A stretch of 6,905 nucleotides of DNA from a virus (IMGVR_UViG_2526164632_000019); one strand, 5' to 3'. Shown: positions 1-6,905, counted from the stretch's first letter. Notes: generated by a model from the sequence alone, not told the origin. Numbers and translations: made by a program.

Positions 1-113
1 CAAAAACAGTGTTATGGGTGGATTCTCTGTATCCGGCGTTAATTGTTAACTGGTTAACGTCACCTGGAGGCACCAGGCACCACATCACAAAATTCATTGT
101 TGAGGACGCGATA

Positions 114-302
114 ATGGAAACGTTATTACCAAACGTTAATACGTCTGAAGGTTGTTTTGAAATTGGTGTCACTATCAGTAACCCTGTATTTACTGAAGAT
201 GCCATTAACAAGAGAAAACACGAACGGGAGTTATTAAATAAAATATGCATTCTTTCAATGCTGGCCCGTTTACGTCCGATACAAAAAGGATGCTGGCAAT
301 GA
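114..302 (+). CDS. Small hypothetical protein (62 aa) in the prophage early-left region. The reading frame is open back to the window edge, so it may instead be the C-terminus of a longer gene starting upstream of the window.
   Basis: ATG at 114 preceded by GAGGA (102-106) at about 8 nt spacing; stop TGA at 300-302 overlaps the ATG of the next ORF (ATGA overlap). Same strand as the downstream prophage genes. No recognisable motif. Confidence 0.4.
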   Translation: METLLPNVNTSEGCFEIGVTISNPVFTEDAINKRKHERELLNKICILSMLARLRPIQKGCWQ

Positions 303-490
303 ATACAGCATTTGCACTTGTTCTGACAGTTTTTCTTGTTTCCGGAGAGCCAGTTGATATTGCAGTCAGTGTTCACAGGACAATGCAGGAGTGTGTGACT
401 GCAGCAACCGAACAGAAAATTCCCGGTAACTGTTACCCGGTCGATAAAGTTATTCACCAGGATAATAACGAAATCCCGGCAGGTCTTTAA
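299..490 (+). CDS. Small hypothetical protein (63 aa) with a hydrophobic N-terminus (MNTAFALVLTVFLVSG), possibly a signal peptide or membrane anchor, and two Cys residues; common small prophage protein type.
   Basis: ATG at 299 overlaps the stop of the upstream ORF (translational coupling); AGGA at 286-289 upstream. The hydrophobic stretch followed by a polar region with two Cys is read directly from the translation. Start choice between 290 and 299 is uncertain. Confidence 0.5.
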   Translation: MNTAFALVLTVFLVSGEPVDIAVSVHRTMQECVTAATEQKIPGNCYPVDKVIHQDNNEIPAGL

Positions 491-582
491 AACAGTTCCG
501 TAATAAACATCCGGTTTCATTCTTATATGCCAGCAATGGCAGGGATTTGTTCACCATTAAATCTGTAATGAGGTAAGACAAA

Positions 583-3054
583 ATGAGTAAAGTCTTTATT
601 TGCGCCGCCATTCCGGACGAACAGGCAATAAAGGAAGAAGGTGCAGTCGCTGTAGCCACTGCCATTGAAGCCGGTGATGAATGTCGCGCCCGCGCAAAAT
701 TTCACTGGCAATTCCTGGAACATTATCCGGCTGCTCAGGACTGCGCTTATAAATTTATTGTCTGCGAGGATAAACCTGGCATACCCCGCCCTGCCCTCGA
801 TTCATGGGATGCTGAATATATGCAGGAAAACCGCTGGGATGAGGAGTCTGCTTCTTTTGTCCCGGTTGAGACTGAATCCGATCCGATGAACGTCACTTTT
901 GACAAGCTGGCCCCTGAAGTACAGAACGCTGTCATGGTTAAGTTCGACACATGTGAAAACATCACCGTTGATATGGTTATTAGCGCACAGGAATTGTTGC
1001 AGGAAGACATGGCAACATTCGACGGACATATCGTTGAAGCGTTGATGAAAATGCCAGAAGTTAACGCCATGTATCCGGAGCTTAAGTTGCACGCCATTGG
1101 GTGGGTTAAGCATAAATGTATTCCTGGTGCTAAATGGCCCGAAATTCAGGCAGAGATGCGCATCTGGAAAAAACGTCGCGAAGGTGAACGCAAGGAAACC
1201 GGAAAATACACGTCTGTTGTTGATCTCGCCCGCGCCAGAGCCAATCAACAGTACACTGAAAATTCAACAGGAAAAATCAGCCCGGTCATTGCTGCCATTC
1301 ATCGCGAATACAAGCAGACATGGAAAACACTGGATGACGAACTGGCCTACGCTCTCTGGCCTGGTGATGTGGATGCCGGAAACATTGACGGCAGCATCCA
1401 TCGCTGGGCAAAAAATGAAGTTATCGACAACGGCCGCGAAGACTGGAAGCGTATCTCGGCATCAATGCGCAAACAGCCTGATGCCCTTCGCTACGACCGC
1501 CAGACTATTTTTGGCCTTGTCCGTGAACGTCCGATCGACATTCACAAAGATCCCGTAGCACTGAACAAATATATCTGCGAATACCTGACGACAAAGGGCG
1601 TGTTTGAGAATGAAGAAACAGACCTGGGCACTGTTGATGTTCTCCAGTCATCAGAAACACAAACTGATGCAGTGGAAACTGAGGTATCTGATATCCCAAA
1701 AAATGAAACCGCGCCGGAAGCTGAACCATCTGTAGAGCGTGAGGGGCCGTTCTACTTCCTCTTCACCGACAAGGATGGCGAAAAATACGGTCGCGCAAAC
1801 AAACTTTCTGGTCTGGATAAGGCGCTGTCTGCTGGGGCTACTGAAATCACGAAAGAAGAATATTTCGCCCGCAAAAACGGTACATACTCAGGTTCACAAC
1901 AAAATACTGGTGCATCTGACACGACCGCACAACCAGGGCCGGTAAAAGTTACCGCTGACGAAGTAAACAAAATTATGCAGGCAGCCAATATCAGCCAGCC
2001 TGACGCCGATAAGTTACTTGCTGTATCGCGTGGTGAATTTGTTGAGGGGATTAGCGCCCCTAATGATCCGAAATGGGTCAAGGGGATCCAGACTCGCGAT
2101 TCTGTGAACCAGAACCAGCATGAATCGGAACGGAACTACCAAAAAGCGGAACAAAACAGCCCAAATGCGTTACAAAACGAGCCAGAAACGAAACAACCTG
2201 AACCAGTAGTGCAACAGGAACCGGAAAAGATCTGCACCGCCTGCGGTCAGAGCGGTGGCGGCAACTGCCCTGATTGTGGTGCGGTGATGGGTGACGCAAC
2301 ATACCAGGAAATATTCGATGGAGAGAATCAGCCTGAAGTTCAGGAAAATGATCCGGAGGAAATGGAAGGCACTGCGCATCAGCACAAGGAGAACACTGGC
2401 GGCAATCAGCATCATGCCAGCGATAGTGAAACTGGCGAGGCGTCAGATCCCTTAATTAAGGCGAACGGTCATCATAATCTCACATCCACCAGCAGAGCGG
2501 GGATTCATCTGATGATCGACCTTGAAACCATGGGAAAAAATCCCGATGCCCCGATTATCTCAATAGGTGCAATATTTTTCGATCCGCAAACCGGAGATAT
2601 GGGACCGGAATTTAGTAAGACTATCGATCTGGAAACTGCTGGCGGAGTCATTGATCGGGACACCATTAAATGGTGGCTTAAACAATCACGCGAAGCGCAA
2701 TCTGCCATTATGGCCGATGAAATCCCGTTAGATGATGCACTGTTACAATTGCGGGAATTTATCGACGAAAACTCCGGTGAATTTTTTGTTCATGTCTGGG
2801 GAAATGGAGCCAACTTCGACAACACGATTTTGCGCCGTTCATACGAACGGCAGGGGATCCCCTGCCCGTGGCGTTACTACAACGATCGCGATGTACGCAC
2901 AATCGTTGAGCTGGGGAAAGCCATAGACTTCGATGCCAGAACGGCTATTCCATTCGAAGGTGAGCGCCATAATGCACTTGATGACGCCCGTTACCAGGCA
3001 AAATACGTTTCAGCTATCTGGCAAAAACTGATCCCGAGTCAGGCTGATTTTTAA
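583..3054 (+). CDS. Prophage multidomain nuclease (823 aa): uncharacterised N-terminal domain, acidic linkers, CxxC-x8-CxxC zinc knuckle, and C-terminal DEDDh (DnaQ-like) 3'-5' exonuclease domain. Probably the type of protein often annotated as exodeoxyribonuclease VIII-like in lambdoid prophages.
   Basis: Uninterrupted 2472-nt ORF with GAGGT RBS about 8 nt upstream of ATG 583. C-terminal motifs read from the translation: Exo I MIDLETMG (D646, E648; nt 2518-2526), Exo II HVWGNGANFD (D746), Exo III HNALDD (H796, D801; nt 2968-2985). Zinc knuckle CTAC...CPDC at residues 551-566 (nt 2233-2280). It sits immediately upstream of xis-int, where lambda exo and Rac recE lie. Confidence 0.85.
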   Translation: MSKVFICAAIPDEQAIKEEGAVAVATAIEAGDECRARAKFHWQFLEHYPAAQDCAYKFIVCEDKPGIPRPALDSWDAEYMQENRWDEESASFVPVETESDPMNVTFDKLAPEVQNAVMVKFDTCENITVDMVISAQELLQEDMATFDGHIVEALMKMPEVNAMYPELKLHAIGWVKHKCIPGAKWPEIQAEMRIWKKRREGERKETGKYTSVVDLARARANQQYTENSTGKISPVIAAIHREYKQTWKTLDDELAYALWPGDVDAGNIDGSIHRWAKNEVIDNGREDWKRISASMRKQPDALRYDRQTIFGLVRERPIDIHKDPVALNKYICEYLTTKGVFENEETDLGTVDVLQSSETQTDAVETEVSDIPKNETAPEAEPSVEREGPFYFLFTDKDGEKYGRANKLSGLDKALSAGATEITKEEYFARKNGTYSGSQQNTGASDTTAQPGPVKVTADEVNKIMQAANISQPDADKLLAVSRGEFVEGISAPNDPKWVKGIQTRDSVNQNQHESERNYQKAEQNSPNALQNEPETKQPEPVVQQEPEKICTACGQSGGGNCPDCGAVMGDATYQEIFDGENQPEVQENDPEEMEGTAHQHKENTGGNQHHASDSETGEASDPLIKANGHHNLTSTSRAGIHLMIDLETMGKNPDAPIISIGAIFFDPQTGDMGPEFSKTIDLETAGGVIDRDTIKWWLKQSREAQSAIMADEIPLDDALLQLREFIDENSGEFFVHVWGNGANFDNTILRRSYERQGIPCPWRYYNDRDVRTIVELGKAIDFDARTAIPFEGERHNALDDARYQAKYVSAIWQKLIPSQADF

Positions 3055-3069
3055 TGTTCAACCCTAATT

Positions 3070-3095
3070 GCCGCTAACCGTATATAGTTAGCGGC
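3070..3095. repeat. Perfect 9-bp inverted repeat (GCCGCTAAC / GTTAGCGGC) with an 8-nt AT-rich spacer, in the gap between the nuclease gene and the xis-like gene.
   Basis: Read directly: 3070-3078 gccgctaac, spacer cgtatata, 3087-3095 gttagcggc. No downstream T-tract, so it does not look like an intrinsic terminator; more likely a protein-binding palindrome or an RNA hairpin. Confidence 0.5.
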
Positions 3096-3112
3096 GGTTA
3101 TGAGATATAGCT

Positions 3113-3316
3113 ATGAGCAGCTTATTTTTAACCGAAGATGAATTGCTAATATTAACGGGCTGCAAATATGCAAGCCACCAGCGAAAATGGTTAATGGAAA
3201 ACGGGCTTCCGTTCTATACCAATCGTAGTGGCAAACCGATTGTCAGCCGGGAGCTATTTACCTGCAATAAAACTTTACCACCACGCGAGGTAGAGCCGAA
3301 TTTTGGTGCGATCTGA
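3113..3316 (+). CDS. Small excisionase-like / DUF4224-type protein (67 aa) typically found immediately upstream of lambdoid integrases.
   Basis: The motif LTEDELLILTGCKYASHQRKWLMENGLPFYTNRSGKPIV matches my memory of the DUF4224 pattern. Its TGA stop overlaps the integrase ATG (TGATG at 3314-3318), indicating translational coupling. Confidence 0.7.
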   Translation: MSSLFLTEDELLILTGCKYASHQRKWLMENGLPFYTNRSGKPIVSRELFTCNKTLPPREVEPNFGAI

Positions 3317-4340
3317 TGGGAAGACGAAGGAAAAATCCTGAACACGAAAAATTACCTCCAAATGTATACCCAAATAAATATAGTTATGTATGGAAACCAA
3401 CATCCAGAGAATCTGTAACACTAACCGCCATCAAGGATGGTTTAGCTGCTTTATGGAAAAAGTATGAGGAAACTGTAAATAATCGCGATCGTGCAATGAC
3501 ATTCGGTCGCTTGTGGGAAAAATTCCTCGCCAGCGCCTATTACAGTGACCTCAGTCCAAGAACACAAAAAGATTATCTGCAACATCAAAAAAAGTTGCTT
3601 GCCGTATTCGGTAAGGTGCCGGCAGATTCCATAAAACCAGAACACATCCGTCGATACATGGACAAGAGAGGGGAGCAGAGTAAAACGCAAGCCAACCATG
3701 AAAAAAGCAGTATGTCCCGCGTTTACAGTTGGGGGTATGAGCGAGGGTACGTGAAGGGTAACCCATGTGCAGGTGTAAGTAAATTCAAGGCCAAAAACCG
3801 CGAACGATATGTAACCGACAAAGAATACCAGGCAGTATTAAGCGTTGCACCTCTTCCTGTTTTTATCGCAATGGAAATTGCCTATCTGTGTGCAGCGAGG
3901 GTTTCCGATGTGTTATCGCTGAAATGGGAGCAGATTGGAAACGACGGGATCTTTATCCAGCAAGGGAAAACAGGAAAAAACAGATAAAAGCATGGAGTCC
4001 ACGATTACAGGCGGCGATCGAAAAAGCAAAACAGTTACCAACATCCGCCTATGTAATCAGCAATCAATACGGCAACCGATATATGTACAAAGGCTTTAAC
4101 GAAATGTGGGTAGAAGCAAGAAATCGCGCAGGCAAAATTTCAGGTATTTTAACCGACTTCACCTTTCATGATCTGAAGGCGAAAGGAATTTCAGACTATG
4201 AAGGAAGCAGTCGGGATAAGCAACTTTTCTCTGGTCACAAAACCGAGGGGCAAGTGCTAATCTATGACAGGAAGGTTAAAGTTTCACCGACACTTGATGT
4301 CCCGTTACCTGAAAATATTCCAAGAAAATATTCCAAGTAA
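3316..4340 (+). pseudogene. int: Lambda-type tyrosine integrase with N-terminal arm-binding domain, disrupted by a -1 frameshift in an A6 run (3975-3980).
   Basis: Frame A (3316-3987) ends ...IFIQQGKTGKNR*; frame B continues ...KKQIKAWSPRLQAAIEK... to the stop at 4340. Adding one A to the A6 run would join them as ...QGKTGKKQIKAWSP.... The C-terminal box FHDLKAKG...GHKTEGQVLIYDRK carries the catalytic His and Tyr (Y at 4263-4265). The gene lies next to the tRNA-Ser 3' end. Confidence 0.85.
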
Positions 4341-4347
4341 TTCCAAG
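4311..4347. repeat. Tandem direct repeats (AAAATATTCCAAG twice, then TAATTCCAAG) overlapping the integrase 3' end; candidate integrase arm-type binding sites.
   Basis: ATTCCAAG occurs at 4317-4324, 4330-4337 and 4340-4347, about 45-80 bp from the tRNA-Ser 3' end (4393). The position is analogous to the lambda P' arm sites, which overlap the int C-terminus. Confidence 0.45.
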
Positions 4348-4392
4348 TGTGATTTTTGTCACTGACTTAATGATGTATAAGTGATTGAATTT

Positions 4393-4482
4393 TGGCGGAG
4401 AGAGGGGGATTTGAACCCCCGGTGGAGTTGCCCCCACTCCGGTTTTCGAGACCGGTCCGTTCAGCCGCTCCGGCATCTCTCC
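4393..4482 (-). tRNA. serU: tRNA-Ser, anticodon CGA, 90 nt with long variable arm; integration target of the adjacent prophage.
   Basis: Reverse complement reads GGAGAGATGCCGGAGCGGCTGAACGGACCGGTCTCGAAAACCGGAGTGGGGGCAACTCCACCGGGGGTTCAAATCCCCCTCTCTCCGCCA. Acceptor stem GGAGAGA/TCTCTCC, anticodon loop CUCGAAA, 3' CCA encoded. Matches my recollection of E. coli serU and its position next to mtfA. Confidence 0.95.

Positions 4483-5862: not shown

Positions 5863-6905
<1,043 letters not shown>

Follow-up and report, generated by a model that had tools for sequence, protein, structure and literature searches.

Phage lambda, prophage KplE1 of E. coli K-12 and the Salmonella phage ST64B provide the described systems with which the present locus can be compared. 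The lambda sequence was read from OR974322, with the integrase gene first, and matched to the arm-site consensus, which we take to be of the ATAGTGACTG type. Consensus matches lie at −83, −72, and −62 in direct orientation, at +103 in inverted orientation, and at +134 again in direct orientation; the first of them (−83) overlaps the integrase stop codon. For KplE1, a study of IntS and TorI reportedly dealt with the regulation of the integrase gene in a tRNA-integrating prophage and mentioned arm-type sites. The arm-type sites of KplE1 overlap the integrase gene sequence at the promoter region rather than at the 3′ codons; the KplE1 integrase belongs to a different lineage, and its target is argW.

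The integrase of ST64B, IntA, recombines supercoiled attP with attB in vitro when boiled cell extract is supplied (PMC12455584). Arm-type sites are not mentioned in the paper on ST64B IntA (PMC12455584), and a limited literature search found no published arm-site map for ST64B, CP-933U, or the integrase family. Among the insertion sites listed for Stx phages is the tRNA gene serU (PMC8065619). We describe here a serU prophage end with three copies of ATTCCAAG at the 3′ end of the integrase gene; these copies are very likely the integrase-proximal arm-type binding sites of a lambda-style attachment site, equivalent to P′1–P′3.

Prophage End and Repeat Array

The window (the whole 6905-bp stretch of DNA that was analyzed) is E. 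coli DNA with a prophage end. A prophage exonuclease gene was found at positions 583–3054, and the gene order after serU is mtfA, tRNA-Asn, and yeeJ. The last ~300 bp of the window (approximately 6607–6905) are the end of an IS100-like element of the IS21 family (98–99% identity), apparently inserted in yeeJ; the closest genomes are without the element at this place. The features of the integrase end are as follows:

3113–3316, + strand: DUF4224 gene (Pfam DUF4224, E = 1.7e-15), upstream of and abutting the integrase gene
3316–4340, + strand: lambda-like tyrosine integrase gene (ORF list, Pfam hits, and comparison with NZ_CP066032)
4311–4336, + strand: perfect 13-bp unit GAAAATATTCCAA in two copies (Tandem Repeats Finder, 100% match)
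4317–4324, + strand: putative arm-type site 1, the outermost, equivalent of lambda P′3; exact ATTCCAAG inside the integrase coding sequence
4330–4337, + strand: putative arm-type site 2; exact ATTCCAAG in the integrase coding sequence, invariant in all close relatives examined
4340–4347, + strand: putative arm-type site 3, the core-nearest; exact ATTCCAAG, its first base being the last base of the integrase stop codon
4349–4362, no strand assigned: small palindrome GTGATTTTTGTCAC, directly 3′ of site 3
4378–4390, − strand: candidate IHF site ATTCAATCACTTA, one mismatch to WATCAANNNNTTR, between the arm sites and the core
4393–4482, − strand: tRNA-Ser(CGA) gene serU, the integration target (ARAGORN)
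4439–4454, no strand assigned: core region CCGGTTTTCGAGACCG, the anticodon stem-loop (both junctions compared with the attP of ST64B and KpF5)

The motif ATTCCAAG occurs exactly three times in the 6905 bp, always on the + strand, while 0.34 copies are expected by chance; three or more copies appeared in none of 200 dinucleotide shuffles of the window. The start-to-start spacing of the copies is 13 and then 10 bp. Each GAAAATATTCCAA unit consists of one ATTCCAAG site and a spacer, and the two units hold sites 1 and 2. The integrase stop codon TAA is located at 4338–4340; therefore, the first two sites belong to the coding sequence, and the third begins with the final base of the TAA. The first-pass annotation of this DNA had reported tandem repeats at 4311–4347, which is correct in both coordinates and description. 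It had also put three direct repeats within about 80 bp of the tRNA 3′ end and across the C-terminal codons of the integrase; the measured distance between the repeats and the serU 3′ end (4393) is 46–76 bp, and sites 1 and 2 lie within the codons, with site 3 touching the stop.

The integrase gene of the window carries a −1 frameshift in a run of A (A6 at 3975–3980, A7 in intact copies), which splits it into ORFs 3316–3987 and 3888–4340 and would lead to a stop at 223 amino acids, without the catalytic domain. The A6 run reflects either a prophage that is immobile on its own or a homopolymer sequencing error. With the integrase frameshifted in the window, the sites may therefore no longer serve in this particular strain. 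The copy in NZ_CP066032 (99.9% identical) has A7 and reads through to ...PENIPRKYSK and the stop codon. Regarding the neighboring gene, DUF4224 accompanies the integrase gene in relatives, and the protein at the equivalent position in phage ZF40 is annotated as an excisionase; the DUF4224 protein is a candidate excisionase (directionality factor).

Opposite Prophage End and Reconstructed attP

The prophage in NZ_CP066032 is lambdoid, ~64 kb in length, located between yodB and serU, and carries nleB2, nleC, nleH, and nleF. With its flanks it was analyzed over ~90 kb, as a near half of 46.6 kb (L001) and a far half of 44 kb (L002). Several effector genes of this prophage are pseudogenes. It is also full of IS66-family insertions (L002 35037–37652 and other places in L001 and L002), one of which separates the far attachment junction from yodB.

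The far junction is marked by a 61-nt duplicate of the serU 3′ part. The bacterial and the phage tRNA 3′ parts differ at two variable-arm positions (window 4424 and 4435), and bases 4393–4453 of serU, its 3′ part, are phage-derived in the window. Identity with the phage tRNA part stops at ...TTTTCGAGACCG (window 4453), the same base at which the attP of ST64B and KpF5 ends, so the crossover is placed in the anticodon stem-loop (window 4439–4454). The prophage belongs to the tRNA-integrating, anticodon-loop class, the attP of which carries the tRNA 3′ part, and the gene is restored. The functional serU of the lysogen has the phage-derived G-C pair in the variable arm and the displaced bacterial copy has A-T, which is a compensatory double change.

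In the near half, ATTCCAAG was found only as the three copies at the integrase end, and in the far half only as two copies just inside the junction, one inverted and one direct. All five copies in ~90 kb lie within ~130 bp of the crossover; for two random 8-mers in 44 kb, the chance that both fall no more than 130 bp from a given point is roughly 1e-5. The attP was reconstructed by joining the two NZ_CP066032 junctions, with positions counted from the anticodon-loop centre. Its sites are at −130, −117, and −107 (+), +47 (−), and +112 (+), which corresponds to offsets of 0, 13, 23, 177(−), and 242(+); no further ATTCCAAG site at one mismatch was found in the 523 bp of the reconstructed attP. 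Thus read from the integrase side, the site pattern is + + + core − +, and a short motif distinct from the core sequence is repeated on both attP arms.

The first-pass annotation had compared the position of the repeats with that of lambda P′1–P′3, and the orientation + + + core − + is indeed identical in the lambda sequence. Its proposal that the repeats may define the attachment-site arm of the prophage gained support from the search of the other prophage end that it had suggested, where the inverted copy is 47 bp and the direct copy 112 bp away from the crossover centre. The layout in relatives described below supports it as well, so that neither of the two outcomes it had named as refuting was observed.

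Candidate IHF sites were located by a consensus scan only (consensus WATCAANNNNTTR). The matches in attP at −69 (one mismatch), +25 (perfect), and +80 (one mismatch) occupy the positions of lambda H′, H2, and H1, which is suggestive only. In the far arm (L002 34716–34830), the perfect match at +25 is AATCAAAAGGTTA and the second match is at +80; both are kept or improved in diverged far-arm variants. The −69 element, TAAGTGnTTGAAT, is conserved in serU-integrating relatives. We rejected it as a family-wide IHF-like element: it is present in only 10 of the 85 loci of the family survey, so it is a weak candidate for the serU group only.

Conservation of the Array in Related Prophages

A protein search in phage genomes identified related integrases in ST64B (59% identity), Klebsiella phage KpF5 (60%), and Pectobacterium phage ZF40 (50%). 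Species-representative genomes, when scanned, added 80 more relatives with integrases 45–100% identical, giving 85 loci including those of the phages and of ECL27829. In 50 of the 85 loci there was a detectable downstream tRNA, with its 3′ end 50–145 bp from the integrase stop except in ECL27829; the loci without a detected tRNA include intact attP sites and short contigs.

The intact attP sites of five relatives (ST64B, KpF5, ZF40, and loci L052 and L083) share their anatomy with the window prophage. In ST64B and KpF5, the motif TTTTCTCA is found at 0, 13, 23, 178(−), and 241(+), and in ZF40 the motif ATTAGGAA is found at 0, 12, 204(−), and 265(+). The offsets of ZF40 and L052 are 0, 12–13, 203–204(−), and 265(+), and those of L083 are 0, 13, 24, 176(−), and 241(+).

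At least three exact copies of a 7-mer were present beside the integrase 3′ end in 29 of the 85 loci, with spacing of 13 and then 10 or 11 in all 29, and two exact copies were present in 38. As for controls, three copies were found in none of 85 integrase-internal regions and none of 85 shuffled regions, and two copies were found in nine. The three sites at 13/10–11 spacing are kept in relatives with integrases 45–85% identical. In E. albertii and other relatives with integrases 75–85% identical, which are also 341 aa long, the three sites have 13/10 spacing and diverged flanks; in E. albertii, an additional 82%-identical relative, and ECL27829, the units are non-identical as well. A comparison of int 3′ ends in related prophages had been suggested along with the original observation: the repeats are kept, at 13/10 spacing, in the 75–85%-identical relatives, and in distant relatives the layout is preserved with a different 8-mer. 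The sequence GTGAT occurs at most 16 nt after the last site in 15 of 24 three-site arrays belonging to several motif classes (background ~1%); this box may be a site for a shared factor.

Conservation on the integrase side begins ~5 nt before site 1, ECL27829 included. On the distal arm it ends just past the outer site: in five diverged E. coli variants, the far arm is conserved from the core through ATATTCCAAGCCTTCTT and unrelated beyond it. By these boundaries, the array marks both edges of an attP of ~260 bp. In strain 97-3250 (NZ_CP027599, L094 70–170), the conserved far arm, which extends from the core to the outer site, continues into a left flank other than the serU remnant; a tandem or secondary insertion could have produced this junction, or else recombination.

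In many family members, as in lambda, the end of the integrase gene overlaps the first site. Sites 1 and 2 of the window are coding and encode NIPRKYSK, as would be expected if the constraint acted on the protein, through a repeated peptide at the integrase C-terminus, and not on DNA. However, the integrase tail after PTLD is not conserved across the family and has a pLDDT of 43–62 in the AlphaFold2 model, the units are read in different frames, and in ST64B, KpF5, ZF40, and ECL27829 no part of the array precedes the integrase stop codon. We give the peptide explanation next to no credence, and the non-coding arrays already contradict it. The array of ECL27829 is non-coding, 1.2 kb from the integrase gene, and at an unchanged distance from serU. 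ECL27829 (NZ_OZ462641; L010 198–1165/L011) is a sister serU prophage with two extra genes inserted between the integrase stop and the array, encoding an ImmA/IrrE-type metallopeptidase and a hypothetical protein. The array is kept in diverged and in non-coding contexts and is therefore ancestral and constrained as DNA rather than as protein.

Integrase N-Terminal Domain and Arm Motif

Residues 1–313 of the integrase were aligned by phmmer with residues 1–338 of lambda Int (1z1b; E = 1.4e-12). PF09003, the arm-binding model of Pfam, matched residues 1–20 only and remained below the cut-off (E = 0.016); for this reason, we turned to comparing profiles, modelling the structure, and searching by fold. 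The N-domain profile matched lambda Int 1–70 with E = 6.7e-5 and 39% identity over 36 columns, with a probability of 64% only. In the AlphaFold2 model (pLDDT 87.5), the N-terminal domain consists of three strands (17–19, 23–26, and 34–38) and a helix (43–58), with a pLDDT of about 85. The top Foldseek match of the model was full-length lambda Int (1z1b; E = 6e-16, 352 aligned columns). As modelled, the integrase is of the lambda Int type, with an arm-binding domain at the N-terminus followed by the core-binding and catalytic domains.

Across the family, the arm motif tracks a short signature of the integrase N-terminus, around residues 24–32. At least 12 signature–motif pairs were found, among them the following:

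signature YVWKPTSRE, arm motif ATTCCAAG
signature GYYWKPGG, arm motif TTTTCTCA
signature YYYKPT(S/A)KE, arm motif TATTCTAAG
signature YEFHPxxGG, arm motif TATTAGGAA
signature RTCRGRSAYEFKPK, arm motif TATTATGAA
signature YEFKH(P/N)xGR, arm motif TTCTGAA
signature YEFQTYDSR, arm motif ATAGTGAA
signature YEFRxxDGR, arm motif ATGGCGAA
signature YEFRxKDNK, arm motif CATCTTCGGA

The motif is independent of the tRNA target: tRNA-Leu(TAA) integrators have at least seven motifs, and serU integrators have two. In Siccibacter (DHYB01000008, L099 1610–1790), with an integrase 75% identical, the array ATTCCAGG/ATTCCAAG/ATTCCAAC at 13/10 spacing adjoins tRNA-Ser(UGA), and a hairpin is inserted between the array and the tRNA. 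By its sequence, this relative appears to have the arm specificity of the serU prophage and a different core target. Between classes, the integrases differ most in their N-terminal 60 residues. From pairwise identity, motif sharing was predicted with an AUC of 0.86 from the first 60 residues, 0.78 from the rest of the integrase, and 0.76 from the excisionase-like ORF; the advantage of the N-domain is modest, the signature–motif table is more telling, and the tracking is partly confounded by shared ancestry. Arm specificity appears to follow the N-terminal domain and to be separable from core specificity.

Another factor, either the DUF4224 excisionase-like protein or a host protein, could bind the repeats in place of the integrase N-terminal domain. 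Excisionases, too, recognize short direct repeats in the arms of attachment sites; the DUF4224 gene is found together with the integrase gene; and motif sharing can be predicted, to a degree, from identity in the excisionase-like ORF. Nevertheless, the sites are present on both arms in the orientation pattern of lambda P1/P2/P′1–3, whereas lambda Xis sites are known from only one arm. The arm motif follows the N-domain signature of the integrase, with the higher AUC (0.86 versus 0.76), and a host factor could not explain at least 12 motif classes within one host group. We consider binding by another factor improbable and retain the reading of the repeats as arm-type sites of the integrase.

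Variation in the Number of 13-bp Units

A segment of the integrase-proximal arm was found in 1152 of 5426 complete E. coli genomes. The two-unit, three-site allele present in the window is carried by about 1055 of the 1152, and the unit number differs from two in ~92–97 (about 8%), ranging from one to four units; these frequencies are approximate, being derived by BLAST identity band. One- and three-unit alleles are not cleanly separable by BLAST, which breaks an alignment with a 26-bp difference into two perfect pieces. Most carriers of other alleles have three units, e.g., the O157:H7 strains EC4115, TW14359, SS17, and SS52. The one-unit allele was found in a few strains (113, OkiPb01687, EC20017429) and the four-unit allele in at least one (Z1323HEC0355). 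Alignment of the one-, two-, three-, and four-unit alleles showed prophages that are otherwise near-identical.

The integrase frame runs into the array, and as a result, unit slippage alters the tail as well as the site number, which ranges from 2 to 5. Every unit step shifts the tail frame: the one-unit allele ends with ...PSNSKCDFCH, the two-unit allele ends with ...PRKYSK, and the three-unit allele has a 29-residue tail reaching almost to the tRNA. The two-unit integrase is 341 aa in length and the one-unit integrase is 344 aa, which goes against the earlier idea that a duplication merely extends the integrase C-terminus, the two-unit tail being the shorter one. PGAP calls the intact two-unit integrase of NZ_CP066032 (L001 23316–24366, equal to window 3316–4365) ‘frameshifted’ and extends it to the stop codon of the one-unit allele. 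This call was rejected as evidence of decay; it reflects repeat-number variation because the 341-aa frame also occurs in diverged relatives. At the serU locus, ‘frameshifted integrase’ calls made by automatic annotation can simply be of this origin.

If the repeats were no more than a neutral duplication by strand slippage, altering the integrase tail only and having no role in DNA binding, this would account for the perfect 13-bp tandem unit that includes the first two copies, for the one to four units and changed tails among otherwise near-identical E. coli prophages, and for the PGAP call in NZ_CP066032. It would not account for the three-site 13/10 array with non-identical units in 75–85%-identical relatives having diverged flanks and 341-aa integrases, for the array as non-coding DNA in ECL27829, for arrays with other motifs across the family, or for ATTCCAAG at fixed positions on the other arm. 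As a full explanation, neutral duplication is already contradicted by the comparisons, and we hold it to be very unlikely. The slippage itself is real, but as a polymorphism superimposed on an ancient array. Slipped-strand duplication, which the first-pass annotation had offered as the alternative, fails as the origin of the array, which is ancestral, and holds for the 13-bp unit, which does vary from one to four copies.

With the repeats read as arm-type sites, the 13-bp unit could be a contingency locus for prophage mobility, resetting the number of docking sites on the integrase-proximal arm (2 to 5) and rewriting the tail; we offer this tentatively and regard it as rather unlikely. If it were true, lineages such as the EC4115/TW14359 group of O157:H7, having three units, would differ heritably in the readiness of this effector-carrying prophage for excision and re-integration.

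Proposed Mechanism and Significance

The prophage is a lambdoid E. coli phage inserted in the anticodon loop of tRNA-Ser(CGA) serU, and its integrase has three domains. According to the proposed mechanism, the small N-terminal domain would contact the arm sites, and the remaining two would bind and cut the core. The full attP of ~260 bp presents three direct sites on one arm and an inverted and a direct site on the far arm, with candidate IHF sites lying in between. By bridging arm and core, with bending of the DNA, the integrase would form the recombination complex for integration, and the DUF4224 protein, as the likely excisionase, would promote excision. Slippage of the 13-bp unit changes the site number (2 to 5) and the non-conserved integrase tail. 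The analysis shows the positions, layout, and conservation of the motif, its tracking of the N-domain, and the protein fold; the actual binding and the role of each site are what we infer.

The array of the serU prophage is very probably an ordinary, previously unmapped example of a textbook mechanism. Its analysis provides a complete, if putative, map of the ~260-bp attachment site for a very common E. coli serU prophage type, the carriers of which include O157:H7 and other EHEC/EPEC strains with effector genes on the serU prophage. The map also applies to the Salmonella relative ST64B, the integrase of which is under active study. The natural pairs of N-domain and arm motif, at least 12 on a fixed 13/10–11 scaffold, are material for decoding how the domain reads DNA and could be useful for building integrases without cross-reaction. 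Of specialist interest are the family-wide N-domain/motif pairing and the 13-bp copy-number polymorphism.

Comparison with Known Systems

The attachment site of the serU prophage resembles that of lambda in having five short sites, corresponding to P1, P2, P′1, P′2, and P′3, in the order + + + core − +; in a triple array that abuts or overlaps the integrase stop, with neighboring sites 10–13 bp apart; and in a three-domain integrase starting with MGRRR...LPPN.Y. The candidate IHF sites between the arm sites and the core, located by consensus scan, may be a further resemblance. The two systems differ in the motif, which is ATTCCAAG in the serU prophage and of the ATAGTGACTG type in lambda, and in the core, which is located in a tRNA anticodon loop in the former, whereas lambda attB is near gal-bio. 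The triple array is 100–130 bp from the crossover in the serU prophage and 53–83 bp in lambda; the three-site arm is the long arm in the serU prophage, and the inverted far-arm site is at +47, compared with +103 in lambda. The integrases are ~20% identical.

With ST64B and KpF5, the serU prophage shares the integrase family (59–60% identity), the serU target, and the site offsets to within 1 bp. The differences are the motif, which is TTTTCTCA in ST64B and KpF5, the location of their array entirely downstream of the stop codon, and the N-terminal domain, with ~30% identity in the first 60 residues and ~65% in the rest of the protein.

The 13-bp unit also resembles slipped-strand repeat variation, being a perfect unit present in one to four copies in otherwise near-identical strains. 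It differs from such variation in that the unit is a predicted protein-binding site with its spacer and that the basic array is ancient rather than a recent event.
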